Shown here piece by piece: positions 14,183 to 43,998 of a stretch of 64,000 nt of DNA (positions within the stretch are counted from its first letter, which is position 1; every line of letters starts with the position of its first letter). The position numbers and the translations under genes are program-made. Below the pieces are notes generated by a model that saw only the letters and a program-made list of their open reading frames with translations, searched no databases and was not told where the DNA came from. The DNA is from Escherichia coli (lineage in GTDB: Bacteria > Pseudomonadota > Gammaproteobacteria > Enterobacterales > Enterobacteriaceae): NCBI RefSeq assembly GCF_036507355.1, contig NZ_AP027877.1; one strand, given 5' to 3'.

Positions 14183-14325
14183 TAAAGCCCTCACCGAAGC
14201 GAGGGCTTGAAGGAGAAGGGTTATGATGCGACTTGTCATCATACTGATTGTACTGTTACTCATAAGTTTCCCAGCTTATTAACAGTCAGTCTCAGGGGAG
14301 GAGTAATCCTCCCTTACCCTTACTC
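14183..14325 (-). ncRNA. sibC: Sib antisense RNA (antitoxin of ibs), approximate bounds
   Basis: Antisense to ibs ORF; minus-strand hairpin gccctcgcttcggtgagggc + TTT near 14186-14207 as terminator; 5' end not determined. Confidence 0.45.
14223..14282 (+). CDS. ibsC: Type I toxin Ibs (19-aa hydrophobic peptide)
   Basis: ATGATGCGACTTGTC... encodes MMRLVIILIVLLLISFPAY; AGGAG Shine-Dalgarno upstream; position between serA and ygfA. Confidence 0.7.
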   Translation: MMRLVIILIVLLLISFPAY

Positions 14326-14382
14326 ACTAAATTAGGTTAAAGAATCAACGATGTCAATCAGGGCGATGCAGGTGTGTCGCCC

Positions 14383-14931
14383 TTACCACTCCCAGACTTT
14401 CGACGGTGTAACCACCGCAGGAAGAGGGATATCCCACTCTTCAACGGGAAGTTTTTCCACTAACTGACAATCATGCGCATAACCCACCGGTTGCATTTTA
14501 TAGTGCTGCCAGTTTTGTAAAGTCCGATCATAAAAACCACCGCCCATTCCCAGGCGCTGGCCGTACTCATCAAAGGCGACCAGCGGTGTGATCAACACGT
14601 CTAATCGGGAAAGGGGTAGCACGTCACGCACATCCAATTTTGGCTCATGGATCTTCAACCTGTTCATCACCAGTTCGCTTTGCGGATGGTAATTCAGGAA
14701 CAGCAAATTACCGGCACTAAAGGGATGCAAAACTGGAAGATATACGCGCTTACCGGCGCGCCAGAGTTGTTCTATAAGCGGCTGGGTGTCGAGTTCTCCA
14801 TCAAAAGAGAGGAATACAGCGACCGTATGTGCCATCACCACCGGGGGATAAGTCATCATCCGGGTAGCGGCTTGTTGACCCATTTCCTGCTGTTGTTCCG
14901 GCGTTAACGCACGACGACGTTGCCGAATCAT
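14383..14931 (-). CDS. ygfA: 5-formyltetrahydrofolate cyclo-ligase YgfA (Fau)
   Basis: ORF 14383-15129 overlaps ssrS; start set at MIRQRRRALTPEQQ (182 aa). Confidence 0.85.
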   Translation of the reverse strand: MIRQRRRALTPEQQQEMGQQAATRMMTYPPVVMAHTVAVFLSFDGELDTQPLIEQLWRAGKRVYLPVLHPFSAGNLLFLNYHPQSELVMNRLKIHEPKLDVRDVLPLSRLDVLITPLVAFDEYGQRLGMGGGFYDRTLQNWQHYKMQPVGYAHDCQLVEKLPVEEWDIPLPAVVTPSKVWEW

Positions 14932-15003
14932 TTTGCGGATTTCTTGTCGGGATAATGTCAGTGAGAGTTCTGGTAGATGCGTCATGGCTGGTGCCAGATA
15001 AGA

Positions 15004-15189
15004 AGGGAATCTCCGAGATGCCGCCGCAGGCTGTAACCCTTGAACCCTTGGTTCAAGGTGAATGTGTCGTCGCAGTTTTAAGGCTTCTCGGACGGACCGA
15101 GCATGCTCACCAACCGCGGAGCGCCACATTCTTGTGGTATGAAATATCGGCTCAGGGGACTGGCCCGCTTGCGAACACCTCAGAGAAAT
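15004..15189 (-). ncRNA. ssrS: 6S RNA
   Basis: Reverse complement reads ATTTCTCTGAG..GTTCGCAAGCGGGCCAGTCCCCTGAGCCGATATTTCATACCACAAGAATGTGGCGCTCCGCGG...GGAGATTCCCT, matching E. coli 6S RNA; between zapA and ygfA. Confidence 0.9.
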
Positions 15190-32042: not shown

Positions 32043-33776
32043 GTGAAACAACAGATACAACTTCGTCGCCGTGAAGTCGATGAAACGGCAGACTTGCCCG
32101 CTGAATTGCCTCCCTTGCTGCGCCGTTTATACGCCAGCCGAGGAGTACGCAGTGCGCAAGAACTGGAACGCAGTGTTAAAGGTATGTTGCCCTGGCAGCA
32201 ACTGAGCGGCGTCGAAAAGGCCGTTGAGATCCTTTACAACGCTTTTCGCGAAGGAACGCGGATTATTGTGGTCGGTGATTTCGACGCTGACGGTGCCACC
32301 AGCACGGCTCTAAGCGTGCTGGCGATGCGCTCGCTTGGTTGCAGCAATATCGACTACCTGGTACCAAACCGTTTCGAAGACGGTTACGGCTTAAGCCCGG
32401 AAGTGGTCGATCAGGCCCATGCCCGTGGCGCGCAGTTAATTGTCACGGTGGATAACGGTATTTCCTCCCATGCGGGGGTTGAGCACGCTCGCTCGTTGGG
32501 CATCCCGGTTATTGTTACCGATCACCATTTGCCGGGCGACACATTACCCGCAGCGGAAGCGATCATTAACCCTAACTTGCGCGACTGTAATTTCCCGTCG
32601 AAATCACTGGCAGGCGTGGGTGTGGCGTTTTATCTGATGCTGGCGCTGCGCACCTTTTTGCGCGATCAGGGCTGGTTTGATGAGCGTAACATCGCAATTC
32701 CTAACCTGGCAGAACTGCTGGATCTGGTCGCGCTGGGGACAGTAGCGGACGTCGTGCCGCTGGACGCTAATAATCGCATTCTGACCTGGCAGGGGATGAG
32801 TCGCATCCGTGCCGGAAAGTGCCGTCCGGGGATTAAAGCGCTGCTGGAAGTGGCAAACCGTGATGCACAAAAACTCGCCGCCAGCGATTTAGGTTTTGCG
32901 CTGGGGCCACGTCTCAATGCTGCCGGGCGACTGGACGATATGTCCGTCGGTGTGGCGCTGTTGTTGTGCGACAACATCGGCGAAGCGCGCGTGCTGGCAA
33001 ATGAACTCGATGCGCTAAACCAGACGCGAAAAGAGATCGAACAAGGAATGCAAATTGAAGCCCTGACCCTGTGCGAGAAACTGGAGCGCAGCCGCGACAC
33101 GCTACCCGGCGGGCTGGCAATGTATCACCCCGAATGGCATCAGGGCGTTGTCGGTATTCTGGCTTCGCGCATCAAAGAGCGTTTTCACCGTCCGGTTATC
33201 GCCTTTGCGCCAGCAGGTGATGGTACGCTGAAAGGTTCAGGTCGCTCCATTCAGGGGCTGCATATGCGTGATGCACTGGAGCGATTAGACACACTCTACC
33301 CTGGCATGATGCTGAAGTTTGGCGGTCATGCGATGGCGGCGGGTTTGTCGCTGGAAGAGGATAAATTCGAACTCTTTCAACAACGGTTTGGCGAACTGGT
33401 TACTGAGTGGCTGGACCCTTCGCTATTGCAAGGCGAAGTGGTGTCAGACGGTCCGTTAAGTCCAGCCGAAATGACCATGGAAGTGGCGCAGCTGCTGCGC
33501 GATGCTGGCCCGTGGGGGCAGATGTTCCCGGAGCCGCTGTTTGACGGTCATTTCCGTCTGCTGCAACAGCGGCTGGTGGGCGAACGTCATTTGAAAGTCA
33601 TGGTCGAACCGGTCGGCGGCGGTCCGCTGCTGGATGGTATTGCTTTTAATGTCGATACCGCCCTCTGGCCGGATAACGGCGTGCGCGAAGTGCAACTGGC
33701 TTACAAGCTCGATATCAACGAGTTTCGCGGCAACCGCAGCCTGCAAATTATCATCGACAATATCTGGCCAATTTAG
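32043..33776 (+). CDS. recJ: Single-stranded-DNA-specific exonuclease RecJ
   Basis: 577-aa ORF, GTG start; DHH motifs VVGDFDADGATS and VTDHH. Confidence 0.95.
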   Translation: MKQQIQLRRREVDETADLPAELPPLLRRLYASRGVRSAQELERSVKGMLPWQQLSGVEKAVEILYNAFREGTRIIVVGDFDADGATSTALSVLAMRSLGCSNIDYLVPNRFEDGYGLSPEVVDQAHARGAQLIVTVDNGISSHAGVEHARSLGIPVIVTDHHLPGDTLPAAEAIINPNLRDCNFPSKSLAGVGVAFYLMLALRTFLRDQGWFDERNIAIPNLAELLDLVALGTVADVVPLDANNRILTWQGMSRIRAGKCRPGIKALLEVANRDAQKLAASDLGFALGPRLNAAGRLDDMSVGVALLLCDNIGEARVLANELDALNQTRKEIEQGMQIEALTLCEKLERSRDTLPGGLAMYHPEWHQGVVGILASRIKERFHRPVIAFAPAGDGTLKGSGRSIQGLHMRDALERLDTLYPGMMLKFGGHAMAAGLSLEEDKFELFQQRFGELVTEWLDPSLLQGEVVSDGPLSPAEMTMEVAQLLRDAGPWGQMFPEPLFDGHFRLLQQRLVGERHLKVMVEPVGGGPLLDGIAFNVDTALWPDNGVREVQLAYKLDINEFRGNRSLQIIIDNIWPI

Positions 33777-33866
33777 CGTCATCTTCTCTATAAAAAAGAG
33801 CGTGGATTGGGTACAATCCCGCTCTTATCACCGCATTTTGACTAGCTCAATAAAAGAAATCAGACC

Positions 33867-34965
33867 ATGTTTGAAATTAATCCGGTAAATAATCGCATTC
33901 AGGACCTCACGGAACGCTCCGACGTTCTTAGGGGGTATCTTTGACTACGACGCCAAGAAAGAGCGTCTGGAAGAAGTAAACGCCGAGCTGGAACAGCCGG
34001 ATGTCTGGAACGAACCCGAACGCGCACAGGCGCTGGGTAAAGAGCGTTCCTCCCTCGAAGCCGTTGTCGACACCCTCGACCAAATGAAACAGGGGCTGGA
34101 AGATGTTTCTGGTCTGCTGGAACTGGCTGTAGAAGCTGACGACGAAGAAACCTTTAACGAAGCCGTTGCTGAACTCGACGCCCTGGAAGAAAAACTGGCG
34201 CAGCTTGAGTTCCGCCGTATGTTCTCTGGCGAATATGACAGCGCCGACTGCTACCTCGATATTCAGGCAGGGTCTGGCGGTACGGAAGCACAGGACTGGG
34301 CGAGCATGCTTGAGCGTATGTATCTGCGCTGGGCAGAATCGCGTGGTTTCAAAACTGAAATCATCGAAGAGTCGGAAGGTGAAGTGGCGGGTATTAAATC
34401 CGTGACTATCAAAATCTCCGGCGATTACGCTTACGGCTGGCTGCGTACAGAAACCGGCGTTCACCGCCTGGTGCGTAAAAGCCCGTTTGACTCCGGCGGT
34501 CGTCGCCACACGTCGTTCAGCTCCGCGTTTGTTTATCCGGAAGTTGATGATGATATTGATATCGAAATCAACCCGGCGGATCTGCGCATTGACGTTTATC
34601 GCGCGTCCGGCGCGGGCGGTCAGCACGTTAACCGTACCGAATCTGCGGTGCGTATTACCCACATCCCGACCGGGATCGTGACCCAGTGCCAGAACGACCG
34701 TTCCCAGCACAAGAACAAAGACCAGGCCATGAAGCAGATGAAAGCGAAGCTTTATGAACTGGAGATGCAGAAGAAAAATGCCGAGAAACAGGCGATGGAA
34801 GATAACAAATCCGACATCGGCTGGGGCAGCCAGATTCGTTCTTATGTCCTTGATGACTCCCGCATTAAAGATCTGCGCACTGGGGTAGAAACCCGCAACA
34901 CGCAGGCCGTGCTGGACGGCAGCCTGGATCAATTTATCGAAGCAAGTTTGAAAGCAGGGTTATGA
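33867..34965 (+). CDS. prfB: Peptide chain release factor 2 (requires programmed +1 frameshift at CTT TGA C, 33939-33945)
   Basis: ATG 33867 gives [25 protein letters not shown] then in-frame TGA at 33942-33944 preceded by AGGGGG; +1 frame continues [16 protein letters not shown]... into ORF ending 34965; GGQ motif present. Confidence 0.95.
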
Positions 34966-34974
34966 GGAACCAAC

Positions 34975-36492
34975 ATGTCTGAACAACACGCACAGGGCGC
35001 TGACGCGGTAGTCGATCTTAACAATGAACTGAAAACGCGTCGTGAGAAGCTGGCGAACCTGCGCGAGCAGGGGATTGCCTTCCCGAACGATTTCCGTCGC
35101 GATCATACCTCTGACCAATTGCACGCAGAATTCGACGGTAAAGAGAACGAAGAACTGGAAGCGCTGAATATCGAAGTCGCCGTTGCTGGCCGCATGATGA
35201 CCCGCCGTATTATGGGTAAAGCGTCTTTCGTTACCCTGCAGGATGTGGGTGGCCGCATTCAGCTGTACGTTGCCCGTGACGATCTGCCGGAAGGCGTTTA
35301 CAACGAGCAGTTCAAAAAATGGGACCTCGGCGACATCCTCGGCGCGAAAGGTAAACTGTTCAAAACCAAAACCGGCGAACTGTCTATCCACTGTACCGAG
35401 CTGCGTCTGCTGACCAAAGCACTGCGTCCGCTGCCGGATAAATTCCACGGCTTGCAGGATCAGGAAGCGCGCTATCGTCAGCGTTATCTGGATCTCATCT
35501 CTAACGATGAATCCCGTAACACCTTTAAAGTGCGCTCGCAGATCCTCTCTGGTATTCGCCAGTTCATGGTGAACCGCGGCTTTATGGAAGTTGAAACGCC
35601 GATGATGCAGGTGATCCCAGGCGGTGCCGCTGCGCGTCCGTTTATCACCCACCATAACGCGCTGGATCTCGACATGTACCTGCGTATCGCGCCGGAACTG
35701 TACCTCAAGCGTCTGGTGGTCGGTGGCTTCGAGCGTGTATTCGAAATCAACCGTAACTTCCGTAACGAAGGTATCTCCGTACGTCATAACCCAGAGTTCA
35801 CCATGATGGAACTCTACATGGCTTACGCAGATTACAAAGATCTGATCGAGCTGACCGAATCGCTGTTCCGTACTCTGGCACAGGATATTCTCGGTAAGAC
35901 GGAAGTGACCTACGGCGACGTGACGCTGGACTTCGGTAAACCGTTCGAAAAACTGACCATGCGAGAAGCGATCAAGAAATATCGCCCGGAAACCGACATG
36001 GCGGATCTGGATAACTTCGACTCTGCGAAAGCGATTGCTGAATCTATCGGTATCCACGTTGAGAAGAGCTGGGGTCTGGGCCGTATCGTTACCGAGATCT
36101 TCGAAGAAGTGGCAGAAGCACATCTGATTCAGCCGACCTTCATTACTGAATATCCGGCAGAAGTTTCTCCGCTGGCGCGTCGTAACGACATTAACCCGGA
36201 AATCACAGACCGCTTTGAGTTCTTCATTGGTGGTCGTGAAATCGGTAACGGCTTTAGCGAGCTGAATGACGCGGAAGATCAGGCGCAGCGCTTCCTGGAT
36301 CAGGTTGCCGCGAAAGATGCAGGTGACGACGAAGCGATGTTCTACGATGAAGATTACGTTACCGCACTGGAACATGGCTTACCGCCGACAGCAGGTCTGG
36401 GGATTGGCATCGACCGTATGGTAATGCTGTTCACCAACAGCCATACCATCCGCGACGTTATTCTGTTCCCGGCGATGCGTCCGGTGAAATAA
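34975..36492 (+). CDS. lysS: Lysyl-tRNA synthetase
   Basis: 505-aa [43 protein letters not shown]. Confidence 0.95.
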
Positions 36493-36512
36493 GCATTACG
36501 TTATGCTCACAA

Positions 36513-36535
36513 CCCCGGCAAATGTCGGGGTTTTT
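36513..36535 (+). terminator. lysS intrinsic terminator
   Basis: Hairpin ccccggcaaatgtcgggg followed by TTTTT; IS1 end abuts the T-run. Confidence 0.6.
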
Positions 36536-36550
36536 GGTAATGACTCCAAC

Positions 36551-37054
36551 TTATTGATAGTGTTTTATGTTCAGATAATGCCCGATGACTTTGTCATGCA
36601 GCTCCACCGATTTTGAGAACGACAGCGACTTCCGTCCCAGCCGTGCCAGGTGCTGCCTCAGATTCAGGTTATGCCGCTCAATTCGCTGCGTATATCGCTT
36701 GCTGATTACGTGCAGCTTTCCCTTCAGGCGGGATTCATACAGCGGCCAGCCATCCGTCATCCATATCACCACGTCAAAGGGTGACAGCAGGCTCATAAGA
36801 CGCCCCAGCGTCGCCATCGTGCGTTCACCGAATACGTGCGCAACAACCGTCTTCCGGAGCCTGTCATACGCGTAAAACAGCCAGCGCTGGCGCGATTTAG
36901 CCCCGACATAGCCCCACTGTTCGTCCATTTCCGCGCAGACGATGACGTCACTGCCCGGCTGTATGCGCGAGGTTACCGACTGCGGCCTGAGTTTTTTAAG
37001 TGACGTAAAATCGTGTTGAGGCCAACGCCCATAATGCGGGCTGTTGCCCGGCAT
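36551..37054 (-). CDS. insB: IS1 InsB transposase segment
   Basis: 167-aa [40 protein letters not shown]. Confidence 0.9.
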
Positions 37055-37248
37055 CCAACGCCATTCATGGCCATATCAATGATTTTCTGGTGCGTACCGG
37101 GTTGAGAAGCGGTGTAAGTGAACTGCAGTTGCCATGTTTTACGGCAGTGAGAGCAGAGATAGCGCTGATGTCCGGCGGTGCTTTTGCCGTTACGCACCAC
37201 CCCGTCAGTAGCTGAACAGGAGGGACAGCTGATAGAAACAGAAGCCAC
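36973..37248 (-). CDS. insA: IS1 InsA
   Basis: 91-aa [43 protein letters not shown]. Confidence 0.9.
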
Positions 37249-37504
37249 TGGAGCACCTCAAAAACACCATCATACACTAAATCAGTAAGTTGGCAGCATC
37301 ACCCGCATCAGGATGGGAAATAGGGTAAAAAAGTAAGGAACTTCGATACCTCTACTACAGTGAATATTTTGCTGATGATACTTCCCTTTGCCAAATGAAA
37401 TTAACCTCTTTCTCTATTACCGCGTTTTTCCAGAAGCAAGAGATTGGGTATCAAGAGGCTGGCTGCTATGATATGGCGTCTTGTTTTTTAAGCGAGGAAA
37501 GATT

Positions 37505-38338: not shown

Positions 38339-38412
38339 GCGGGCGTAGTTCAATGGTAGAACGAGAGCTTCCCAAGCTCTATACGAGGGTTCGATTCCCT
38401 TCGCCCGCTCCA
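38339..38412 (+). tRNA. glyU: tRNA-Gly (anticodon CCC)
   Basis: GCGGGCGTAGTTCAATGGTAGAACGAGAGCTTCCCAAGCTCTATACGAGGGTTCGATTCCCTTCGCCCGCTCCA, 74 nt with encoded CCA. Confidence 0.95.
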
Positions 38413-38546: not shown

Positions 38547-40178
38547 ATGCTCAACTCAAAAACCTATCTTTATCAGCGCAATGGCGTCTTTTATATCCGC
38601 CTCAGGATGAAGTCCACAGATCGCCTGACCGTTTCACATCCTTCCCATAGCCGTTATAAAATAGCGTCAGTATCACTACGGACTAAGGATAGACGTACAG
38701 CTATGGCTTACTCACGGCAAATCAAGGCAGCACTTAGGGCAATCCATGCAGACAGACCCAACGCCTCCTATGAGGAAATGAGGGAACACCTGAGGGACAT
38801 CGCAGAGTGGGAGTTGTCTACAGGTCGTTCAGACCTCTTCGAGCCAGATATGAGAGATCTATACCGTGACCAGTATGGGGAAGTGGGAGAGAATCTTGTC
38901 CATGCTCTGGCAAGCGAGCCACTGACTATTGACCAGCATCGCTATATTAATGAGGCTCTTAATGTACTCAAGGCCTGCATGAAGCGCATTGAAGCGGGAG
39001 ATAGCCAGCCACTTATAGATTATATAGATGGATTTGATGCTGCTGCTGGGGCTAATGGCCAAGCCTCTGCAACTCTATCTGTTAGTGCTCCCCAAAAAAC
39101 AAGCATTACTGAAGGCAAACACTGCGTAACCGTTGCTTCTCTCTTTGAGCAGTACGAGCAGGAAAACGCCCAGAACTGGAAGCCAGCAACATTACGAGAA
39201 AACAAAGCTTCTCATGCTGCGTTAATCGAAGTTTTTGATTATCTGGGCCTCAATGCTGACGCCAATGTGTTAGCTCGTGCGGATATGCTTAGGGTTCGGG
39301 ATATCCTCCAGCAATTGCCGAAGAATCGTAAGCAGCGTTTCAAAGATGTTCCGTTGGTTGACCTGCTAGGTCGTGAGGATAAAACCGATTGTCTGGATAT
39401 TGTTACCATCAATAATAAATATCTCATTAAGATGGCGGCTGTTTTCAAGTGGGCCGTGCGTAATGACCTGATTAAAAAGAATATGACAGAAGGGCTAGAG
39501 CTTAAGGTTCCCCAGCGTAAAGCCTCTGAGGCGCGTAATGCTTTCTCTACGGAGCAGGTAGGACAACTACTGGCTGCCGCCCAAGTTTACTCACAGAGAC
39601 CTTCTGGTAAGCCGTATCATTATTATGTTACCGCCTTGGCTGCTATCACTGGGGCGAGACTCAATGAAATAGCCCAACTACAGGTCAAAGACGTCAGGAC
39701 CACTGAGGCGGGAACCGTTTATATTCATATCAATGAAGACGATAGTAGTCTACCCGGTAAGAGCATCAAGAACGCTCATAGTGACCGCTGTGTGCCTCTG
39801 GTCGATGGGGCCTATGGTTTTATATTGGCTGACTTTATGAGGTTGGTTGAGACCCGTAGAGGCGCTGATGGTGATGACGCTATGGTGTTCGATGGTCTTC
39901 GCCTCATGAAGAACGGTTACGGTGAGCAGGTGAGTAAATGGTTTAATCGGACGTTGTTGCCTAAAGTCCTCGCAGACCGTAGCGGCTTAGCGTTTCACTC
40001 GTTTAGACATACAGTTGCGACCCAGTTAAAACAACATGGGGTCGAGTTGGCGTATGCACAGGCGATCATGGGGCATAGTTCAGGGTCTATTACTTACGAC
40101 CGTTATGCTAAAGAGGTTGAGGTTGATAGACTGGTCAATGTGATGGCTGATGTTTATAAGGAGGTTGTGGCCCCTTAA
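38547..40178 (+). CDS. Tyrosine recombinase/integrase, unusually large (island 1)
   Basis: 543-aa ORF starting 135 bp after glyU; C-terminal HSFRHTVATQLKQ...AQAIMGHSSGSITYDRYAKE resembles catalytic R..H-x-x-R/Y box. Confidence 0.75.
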   Translation: MLNSKTYLYQRNGVFYIRLRMKSTDRLTVSHPSHSRYKIASVSLRTKDRRTAMAYSRQIKAALRAIHADRPNASYEEMREHLRDIAEWELSTGRSDLFEPDMRDLYRDQYGEVGENLVHALASEPLTIDQHRYINEALNVLKACMKRIEAGDSQPLIDYIDGFDAAAGANGQASATLSVSAPQKTSITEGKHCVTVASLFEQYEQENAQNWKPATLRENKASHAALIEVFDYLGLNADANVLARADMLRVRDILQQLPKNRKQRFKDVPLVDLLGREDKTDCLDIVTINNKYLIKMAAVFKWAVRNDLIKKNMTEGLELKVPQRKASEARNAFSTEQVGQLLAAAQVYSQRPSGKPYHYYVTALAAITGARLNEIAQLQVKDVRTTEAGTVYIHINEDDSSLPGKSIKNAHSDRCVPLVDGAYGFILADFMRLVETRRGADGDDAMVFDGLRLMKNGYGEQVSKWFNRTLLPKVLADRSGLAFHSFRHTVATQLKQHGVELAYAQAIMGHSSGSITYDRYAKEVEVDRLVNVMADVYKEVVAP

Positions 40179-40179
40179 G

Positions 40180-40225
40180 GATGACCATAGGCGATGACCA
40201 TAGGCGATGACCATAGGCGATGACA
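40180..40225 (+). repeat. 3.5 tandem copies of 13-bp unit GATGACCATAGGC
   Basis: Exact tandem copies at 40180, 40193, 40206 plus partial; start 1 bp after integrase stop. Confidence 0.9.
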
Positions 40226-40585: not shown

Positions 40586-40729
40586 TAACTTTAAGTATTA
40601 ACTTATAGTCTACTTAAAGACACAATTAAAGATTAACTTAAAGTATTAAATTATAGATTAATTAAAGACCAATTAAAGAGTAACTTTAAGTATTAACTTA
40701 TAGTCTACTTAAAGACACAATTAAAGATT
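40586..40729 (+). repeat. AT-rich iteron-like array: two identical 49-bp direct repeats with a degenerate copy between
   Basis: TAACTTTAAGTATTAACTTATAGTCTACTTAAAGACACAATTAAAGATT at 40586-40634 and 40681-40729. Confidence 0.9.
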
Positions 40730-40922
40730 GACTCTAAGGGAATACCTTAAGAGGTGATGATATTCATAATAATCAATCACCAAACCTATAGGTCTCCTCA
40801 AGGCATTACCCAGAAGCTAACTGTATGGCCCTGTATGGTCCTGTACGCCATTCTTTAGGATGCCATGTAGTTTCGTATGGCCTGATGCCTAGCGTGGCTC
40901 AGAGACCCTCCCAGTAGTAAAT

Positions 40923-41157: not shown

Positions 41158-41721
41158 ATGAACAATAAACATAAACATGCAGGTCATATTATCACTATTG
41201 AAGGCCACAGCTTTAAGTCTAATGAGTCTGGCATGTGGAATCTTACAGAAATATGGAAAATCCTCGGATTACCTAACAATAAGCTACCCTCTCAGTGGCG
41301 CGGCAAGGTAACAAAGAGGCTCACCGACATGCAAAAAATGCACGTCGAGAAGATTGGTATTGAAAGCATAACCTACGCAGACAAACAGGCTACCCTCAAG
41401 TATGCAGGATGGGTCTCTGAAGATTTCGAGGACATGGTCTATGCAGCCTTTGAGGCTATCCTTGAGATGCCTGAAGTTGCCACGGTCGTTGCTAATAAGA
41501 TGGTCGAACTTGGCTATCACGCTGAAGCTGAGCTATTGGAACGTCATAAGGACGACTATAGAGAAGCTATGCAGACCCTTAAAAAGATTGGTAAACGTGT
41601 TGACGGCAGGAAGCCTGAGCGCATCTACAAGGCCGTACTTAACGGTAATCTGACGAAATTTCAAGGGTTATCCATGATTTCTCGCAGCAGTGTCTGGTAC
41701 GCCCGAACAGTGAATCTATGA
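41158..41721 (+). CDS. KilA-N-like DNA-binding domain protein (island 1)
   Basis: 187-aa ORF; N-terminal IITIEGHSFKSNESGMWNLTEIWKILG ... ATLKYAGWVSEDFEDMV resembles KilA-N/anti-repressor N-domain by eye. Confidence 0.5.
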   Translation: MNNKHKHAGHIITIEGHSFKSNESGMWNLTEIWKILGLPNNKLPSQWRGKVTKRLTDMQKMHVEKIGIESITYADKQATLKYAGWVSEDFEDMVYAAFEAILEMPEVATVVANKMVELGYHAEAELLERHKDDYREAMQTLKKIGKRVDGRKPERIYKAVLNGNLTKFQGLSMISRSSVWYARTVNL

Positions 41722-42584: not shown

Positions 42585-42607
42585 TTCGATTCCCTTCGCC
42601 CGCTCCA
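42585..42607 (+). repeat. Direct repeat of glyU 3' end (att site duplication between island 1 and island 2)
   Basis: TTCGATTCCCTTCGCCCGCTCCA identical to 38390-38412. Confidence 0.9.
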
Positions 42608-42771: not shown

Positions 42772-43998
42772 ATGAAGCTGACTGCTCGTCAGGTTGAAAC
42801 TGCGAAACCCAAAGAGAAGCCCTACAAACTGGCCGATGGTGGTGGGCTTTACCTGCTGGTTAATCCCAACGGTAAAAGATACTGGCGTCTCAAATACCGT
42901 TCGTTAGGTAAAGAGAAGCTGCTCGCTATTGGCGTTTATCCCGATGTTTCTTTAGCTGAGGCCCGAAGTAAGCGTGAGGATGCTAAAAGAACATTAGCGG
43001 CTGGCAACGATCCCTCTCTTGAACGAAAAATTGAGAAACTTAGTCGTCAACAAGACGCTGAAAACTCGTTTGAGGCTATCACACGGGAGTGGTATCAGCG
43101 TCGCTATGACCGCTGGTCTGTCTCCTACCGCGAAGAAATGCTGAGAACCTTTGAGAAAGATGTATTTCCTTATATCGGTCACAGGCCAATCAAAGATATC
43201 AAGCCGATGGAGTTGCTTGCAGTTCTTTCAAAGATAGAAGCACGAGGGGCAACAGAGAAAGTCCGCAAGGTTCGTCAGCGTTGTGGAGAGGTCTGGAAGT
43301 ATGCCGTTGTGACTGGGAGGGCCGAGTACAATCCAGCACCTGATCTAGCCAGCGCCGTGAGTCCTCATGAGAAAGAGCACTATGCTTTTTTAACCCAGGA
43401 TGAATTGCCTGAGTTTCTTCGGACTCTGAACGCCTATGCCGGTAGTGTGCTTGTTAAGATTGCGATGCAATTGCTCATTTTAACAGGAGTAAGGCCAGGG
43501 GAGTTGAGGCAAGCGGAGTGGCAGGAGTTTGATTTTGAGAAAAAGGTTTGGAATGTACCAGCGGAACGTATGAAAATGCGCCGCCCTCATCTTGTTCCAT
43601 TATCAAGCCAGGCAATTGACCTGCTTAATCAACTTAAACCCATAACGGGAGCAGGAGCGTTATTATTCCCAGGACGTAATAATCCTAAGAAACCGATGAG
43701 CGATATGGCATTGACTGTGTTGGTCAGGCGTATCGGCTATGCCGGGCGCGTTACAGGGCATGGATTCCGCCACACGATGAGTACCATTTTGCATGAGCAG
43801 GGATTCAACTCGGCCTGGATTGAGTTACAGCTGGCTCACGTCGATAAGAACTCAATTCGTGGGACGTATAACCATGCTCAATATTTGGAAGGTCGGCGGG
43901 AGATGATGCAGTGGTATGGAGATTTCATCGGTCAAGCAGGCAAATCCGGATCATCGCTAGCTTATGCAGCTATTAGCTTGACTGCTGAATTAGAGTGA
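42772..43998 (+). CDS. P4-type tyrosine integrase (island 2)
   Basis: 408 aa; N-terminal arm-binding MKLTARQVETAKPKEKPYKLADGGGLYLLVNPNGKRYWRLKYR; C-terminal GHGFRHTMSTIL...LAHVD...YNHAQY. Confidence 0.9.
   Translation: MKLTARQVETAKPKEKPYKLADGGGLYLLVNPNGKRYWRLKYRSLGKEKLLAIGVYPDVSLAEARSKREDAKRTLAAGNDPSLERKIEKLSRQQDAENSFEAITREWYQRRYDRWSVSYREEMLRTFEKDVFPYIGHRPIKDIKPMELLAVLSKIEARGATEKVRKVRQRCGEVWKYAVVTGRAEYNPAPDLASAVSPHEKEHYAFLTQDELPEFLRTLNAYAGSVLVKIAMQLLILTGVRPGELRQAEWQEFDFEKKVWNVPAERMKMRRPHLVPLSSQAIDLLNQLKPITGAGALLFPGRNNPKKPMSDMALTVLVRRIGYAGRVTGHGFRHTMSTILHEQGFNSAWIELQLAHVDKNSIRGTYNHAQYLEGRREMMQWYGDFIGQAGKSGSSLAYAAISLTAELE

Follow-up and report, generated by a model that had tools for sequence, protein, structure and literature searches.

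The segment at 33867–34965 (+) of the window, as we call the whole 64-kb stretch of Escherichia coli DNA analyzed here, is almost certainly an E. coli-type prfB gene with the canonical autoregulatory programmed +1 ribosomal frameshift. Our analysis obtained the anatomy of the recoding site in the sequence, showed which protein the joined product is, and found the site to be conserved and positionally orthologous; no evidence against a programmed frameshift was seen. A preliminary description of the locus, made from the letters of the DNA alone, had already called it the classic autoregulatory frameshift of release factor 2 (RF2), a reading that is now supported by the identity of the product as RF2, by the way in which RefSeq joins the two parts of the gene, and by the recurrence of the same motif at the same residue across many phyla.

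The prfB start codon is the ATG at 33867, and the zero frame that begins there comprises 25 codons, Met1 to Leu25 (33867–33941, +), as read from the sequence and its translation; in the alignment, these codons match residues 1–25 of solved RF2. The complete coding sequence including its stop codon covers 33867–34965 (+) and encodes the 365-amino-acid RF2 with one +1 shift, join(33867..33941, 33943..34965), its span of 1,099 nt being equal to the length of the RefSeq prfB CDS. At the end of the short zero-frame segment lies the internal Shine-Dalgarno (SD)-like element AGGGGG (33930–33935, +), the stimulator of the shift, which is located 3 nt 5' of CTT and represents the consensus for this element among prfB frameshift motifs (PMC12421855). 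It is followed by the 3-nt spacer TAT (33936–33938, +), a UAU codon that would be in the E site while CUU sits in the P site, and by the slippery sequence CUU U (33939–33942, +), in which CTT occupies 33939–33941 and UUU 33940–33942 and for which we follow a published mechanism (PMC12421855). Codon 26 is the in-frame, RF2-specific stop UGA that together with its 3' C covers 33942–33945 (+; TGA at 33942–33944, C at 33945), and UGAC is a weak termination context (PMC12421855). All coordinates that the preliminary description had given for this site, i.e., CTT followed by an in-frame TGA after 25 codons and AGGGGG three nucleotides upstream, were correct on the sequence.

The +1-frame segment (33943–34965, +) starts with GAC at 33943 and consists of codons 26–365 (Asp26 to Leu365) plus the TGA stop codon at 34963–34965. 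In this frame, no stop codon is encountered from 33889, directly past an upstream stop at 33886–33888, up to this terminal TGA. The preliminary description had the +1 frame continue into an open reading frame of 293 amino acids; the continuation stands but the size does not, and the real +1 segment, the frameshifted part of RF2, has 340 codons (33943–34962) that align with RF2 residues 26–365. The 293-amino-acid frame (34084–34965) is only what a mechanical listing from ATG to stop makes of the +1 frame. No ATG, GTG, or TTG was found in the +1 frame from 33889 to 34084, so that no independent start is possible near the site.

The composite motif AGGGGGNNNCTTTGAC occurs only once in the window, even when one mismatch is allowed, while 0.03 occurrences would be expected by chance according to shuffled sequences. 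All features that characterize a prfB frameshift site were found in the sequence: a host gene for RF2 (the class I release factor with specificity for UGA/UAA), UGA at codon 26, the slippery CUU U, AGGGGG at a distance of 3 nt, the 3' C, an open +1 frame, and positional orthology. An Rfam scan of the whole window reported no family over the site, as expected because the site is a linear motif with no modelled RNA structure.

When joined across the shift, the product of 365 amino acids aligns from end to end (residues 1–365) with the solved E. coli RF2 chains, among them PDB 1gqe, 1ml5, and many ribosome complexes, with 364/365 identical residues (E about 1e-240) and a single substitution relative to each of them. 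An alignment with E. coli RF2 is what the preliminary description had proposed as a check, and the joined product did align with RF2 over its full length. It scores 525.9 bits with the NCBIfam model TIGR00020 (prfB; cutoff 370), stays under the cutoffs of the models for release factor 1 (RF1; 305.7 versus 400), and contains the Pfam PCRF and RF-1 domains. Both motifs that had been named for confirmation in the joined product are present, the RF2 stop-codon-recognition tripeptide SPF at residues 205–207 (codons AGC CCG TTT, 34480–34488, +) and the catalytic GGQ motif of peptidyl-tRNA hydrolysis at residues 250–252 (codons GGC GGT CAG, 34615–34623, +). The paralogous class I factor RF1, encoded by prfA, has the PCRF/RF-1 architecture and GGQ in common with the window RF2, and RF1 structures were matched by the joined product at E about 1e-65. 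RF1 differs by PxT in place of SPF and by the absence of a programmed frameshift (PMC12421855).

Strains ES5 and L26 have prfB products in RefSeq that match the window RF2 at every residue, and this identical protein bears the RefSeq product name "peptide chain release factor 2, programmed frameshift". The RefSeq annotations of ES5, K-12 J53, and L26 give this 1,099-nt CDS in two joined pieces, with the remark "programmed frameshift" and not as a pseudogene, which agrees with the preliminary description in that the locus should be spared a pseudogene annotation.

The full-length match also bears on the idea that two separate products are made without any frameshift, a 25-amino-acid leader and a truncated RF2 of 293 amino acids initiated at ATG 34084, which is indeed the first start codon in the +1 frame. 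Such a truncated protein would lack residues 1–72, over which the joined product and solved full-length RF2 align perfectly. Residues 26–72, whose +1-frame codons precede ATG 34084, are moreover conserved as protein in other species, since the alignments with other species begin at residue 26 (see below), and the 15 nt upstream of 34084, GACACCCTCGACCAA, contain no Shine-Dalgarno sequence. We rejected internal initiation at ATG 34084 on account of the match of residues 1–72, the conservation of residues 26–72, and the lack of a Shine-Dalgarno sequence, and consider it extremely improbable that RF2 is produced in this way rather than by a frameshift.

Conservation of the site was first assessed within the species by a megablast search with a 1.4-kb region as the query and 5,426 complete E. 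coli genomes as the target. This region was found in one copy each in 5,425 of the 5,426 genomes, and its neighbors were always annotated as recJ, prfB, and lysS. In 5,418 of these 5,425 genomes (K-12 among them), the first 124 nt of prfB, including the frameshift site, show an identity of at least 99%, and an identical 40-nt stretch around the site is shared by ES5, K-12 J53, and L26. Beyond the species, a scan for the pattern AGGGGGTNNCTTTGAC with its 14 specified bases covered one genome each of 100,044 species (298 Gb) and returned at least 120 loci; for each of the loci listed, the +1 frame was translated, beginning with the G of TGA, and then compared with the window RF2.

The matches listed come from Gammaproteobacteria, Betaproteobacteria, Bacillota, Bacteroidota, Omnitrophota, Chlorobiota, and others, and in 104 of the 120 the +1 product is homologous to RF2. 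Among these 104 RF2-positive matches listed, the alignment with RF2 begins at residue 26 in all but two, which align from residues 31 and 32, and the spacers are most often TAT (62 loci), TCT (23 loci), or TAC (11 loci). TAT, the spacer of the window, is the commonest among the matches listed and is also the spacer of the sampled gammaproteobacterial loci; the zero-frame leader, where an ATG is present, mostly has 20–27 codons among the matches listed. RF2 homology is absent from 15 of the 120 matches listed, which fits the chance background of a pattern with 14 specified bases in 298 Gb. One of these 15 (L013) has a leader of 24 codons, but its contig ends after 32 codons, and one further listed locus is too short for judging RF2 homology. 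A published survey of 12,753 genomes reported the frameshift in 64% and described AGGGGG, CTTT, TGA, and the 3' C as nearly invariant (PMC12421855). On these sequence comparisons, the window site is the orthologous, canonical prfB site because the cross-species matches align at RF2 residue 26 and mostly share the TAT spacer.

This conservation also bears on a reading of the locus as a prfB pseudogene or as a sequencing or assembly error, that is, a 1-nt insertion with no functional RF2 made from it. A mechanical ORF call splits prfB into ORFs of 25 and 293 amino acids, and naive pipelines thus flag a disruption. Yet, the apparent break coincides with the exact canonical motif, unique in the window. 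An identical copy of this motif is present in essentially every one of the 5,425 complete E. coli genomes, including K-12, and the motif recurs at the same RF2 residue in distant phyla. The frame is otherwise intact with no other stop codon or indel and encodes a protein that is 100% identical to RefSeq RF2, and the essentiality of RF2 in E. coli likewise counts against a pseudogene. We regard this reading as ruled out by the identity of the site over thousands of genomes and across phyla together with the otherwise intact frame, and would assign a vanishingly small probability to it.

The steps of the programmed frameshift, comprising the pause, SD pairing, and the slip of tRNA-Leu, follow a published account (PMC12421855). 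Ribosomes would initiate at ATG 33867 and translate 25 codons, after which CUU (Leu25) would be in the P site and UGA-C in the A site. The UGA followed by C would be a poor termination context that can be read by RF2 only, and abundant RF2 would lead to termination at codon 26 and the release of a 25-amino-acid peptide. At low RF2 levels, the ribosome would pause and AGGGGG could pair with the 3' end (anti-SD) of 16S rRNA, with a spacing of just 3 nt that would cause the E-site tRNA to be destabilized by this pairing. Peptidyl-tRNA-Leu may then re-pair from CUU to UUU, GAC (33943–33945) would be read as Asp26, and 340 more codons would yield the full-length 365-amino-acid RF2 with its SPF and GGQ motifs. 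The overall loop would amount to negative feedback on the concentration of RF2.

For the occurrence of the shift itself, its efficiency, and its dependence on RF2 concentration, we rely on published E. coli experiments in which the sequence was identical, and their results should hold for the window; at the native E. coli locus, ribosome profiling indicates about 21–28% frameshifting (PMC5373646). No rRNA genes were detected in the window by the Rfam scan, and we infer the SD:anti-SD pairing at the site from the known E. coli 16S sequence.

The frame might also be restored in the RNA with no ribosomal shift, if one T of CTTT were removed through transcriptional slippage or editing, and a short T run (TTT) is indeed present at the site. 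Transcriptional slippage is known from homopolymer runs of approximately 9 nt or more, and three T residues are far below this length. Furthermore, the conserved combination of an SD-like element at a fixed spacing of 3 nt, the RF2-specific UGA, and the 3' C is sensible only for a translational mechanism that senses RF2. Published work on E. coli assigns the event to the ribosome (PMC12421855). We rejected transcriptional slippage on the basis of this motif logic and the literature, and its likelihood relative to a ribosomal frameshift appears negligible. It is also very unlikely that the 25-amino-acid zero-frame peptide or the strain context of the gene (Ala246 and an IS1 element abutting the lysS terminator, see below) confers a role beyond RF2 autoregulation, and no pointers to such a role were seen in our analysis.

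Upstream of prfB, the window contains recJ (32043–33776, +), separated by a 90-nt spacer that is identical to the one of K-12. Downstream, lysS (lysine--tRNA ligase, from the RefSeq annotation of matching DNA; 34975–36492, +) is an ORF of 505 amino acids that follows 9 nt past the prfB stop codon. A consensus scan for promoters and terminators over 33500–36700 gave fewer matches than shuffled controls and nothing informative on prfB expression; its sole terminator-like hairpin is at 33804–33819 (−) within the recJ-prfB spacer. Antisense open frames of 334 amino acids (33928–34932, −) and 471 amino acids (34960–36375, −) run exactly opposite prfB and lysS, respectively; rather than being real genes, they probably represent shadow ORFs due to high expression of these two genes. 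Elsewhere in the window, the only Rfam matches were 6S/SsrS RNA (15006–15189, −; 139 bits), a SIB antitoxin RNA (14207–14357, −; 138 bits), and the tRNA-Gly described below, and a mechanical ORF of 248 amino acids (14383–15129, −) is over-extended at its 5' end because it overlaps the 6S gene.

Directly past the run of T residues in the lysS terminator, 2.6 kb downstream of the prfB site, the window carries a complete IS1 of 768 bp (36536–37303, −), with a −1 frameshift motif A6C of its own at 36997–36991 between insA (36973–37248) and insB' (36551–37054). No 9-bp target duplication is visible at the ends of the IS1. Compared with strain L26 (L125, 3419–36762), 33,344 bp with 25 genes are absent at the 36535/37304 junctions and the IS1 is found in their place. 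The missing genes extend from idi through xdhA and include idi, uacT, ygfT/S, ghxQ, guaD, xanQ, xdhD, ygfM, ssnA, and ygfK as well as mocA, yqeB/C, arcC, hyuA, ygeY, dpaL, ygeW, ygeV, and xdhCBA. Since the IS1 flanks show no target-site duplication, this arrangement suggests that a purine/selenium-metabolism region was lost by an IS1-mediated deletion.

Further downstream, a tRNA-Gly(CCC) gene (38339–38412) is the site of two integrase islands in tandem, delimited by an exact repeat of the 3' 23 nt of the tRNA gene (38390–38412) at 42585–42607. The first island, 4.2 kb between the 23-nt repeats and absent from L26, encodes an unusually long tyrosine integrase of 543 amino acids (38547–40178), right after whose stop codon a 13-nt tandem repeat occurs three times (40180–40224). 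It also contains three AT-rich repeats of about 47 nt each (40586–40738) and a weak KilA-N-like ORF (41158–41721), and is a candidate satellite or small integrative element. The second island uses the same tRNA site and extends from 42608 to about 58000, with an integrase of 408 amino acids (42772–43998). According to the annotation of matching L26 DNA (96.7% identity), from which its gene content is taken, it carries two clusters for arsenic resistance (arsRDABC and arsA/D/H) and, as a candidate defence system, DUF2326 and ABC-three-component system genes. In the same annotation, genes of the ETT2 region (ygeH, ygeG, and yqeH-K) come after the second island.

The prfB recoding site in the window is already known and a textbook case, and the biology of the prfB frameshift has been known since 1986. 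It has been surveyed in more than 12,000 genomes (PMC12421855). The value of our analysis therefore lies in annotation only: The locus should be given neither as a pseudogene nor as two ORFs but as a single prfB CDS with ribosomal slippage, join(33867..33941, 33943..34965). Beyond the canonical Ala246 allele, the window copy adds nothing new.

The closest known system is prfB (RF2) of E. coli K-12, whose programmed +1 frameshift was reportedly described by Craigen and Caskey in 1986 and is covered by a review (PMC12421855). The window shares with it the recJ-prfB-lysS synteny, the 90-nt upstream spacer, and the cassette CTT AGG GGG TAT CTT TGA C; between the window and K-12 J53, there are 5 nucleotide differences in the 1,099 nt of prfB and 0 in the 90-nt recJ-prfB spacer. 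The sole amino-acid difference is at codon 246 (34603–34605, +), GCG (Ala) in the window versus ACG (Thr) in K-12 J53. Ala246 is the canonical and more active allele that is found in E. coli B and most strains, while Thr246 is a peculiarity of K-12 that weakens RF2 (PMC5373646). Ala246 thus excludes a K-12 strain as the source of the window. Downstream of lysS, it differs further by the IS1 and the 33-kb deletion, which are not seen in K-12-like references.

The prfB frameshift sites of other bacteria are said to have been covered by Persson and Atkins in 1998 and by Baranov in 2002. More recently, they were treated by Prince in 2025 (PMC12421855). These sites have AGGGGG, the 3-nt spacer, CTTTGAC, and a position at about codon 21–27 in common with the window, whereas the spacer sequence and the flanking codons vary. 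More distant parallels are insAB' of IS1 and dnaX, where ribosomal recoding is likewise needed for the full-length product. In contrast to prfB, these systems shift in the opposite direction (−1) at A-rich heptamers, and they operate with neither a stop-codon sensor nor autoregulation by the product.
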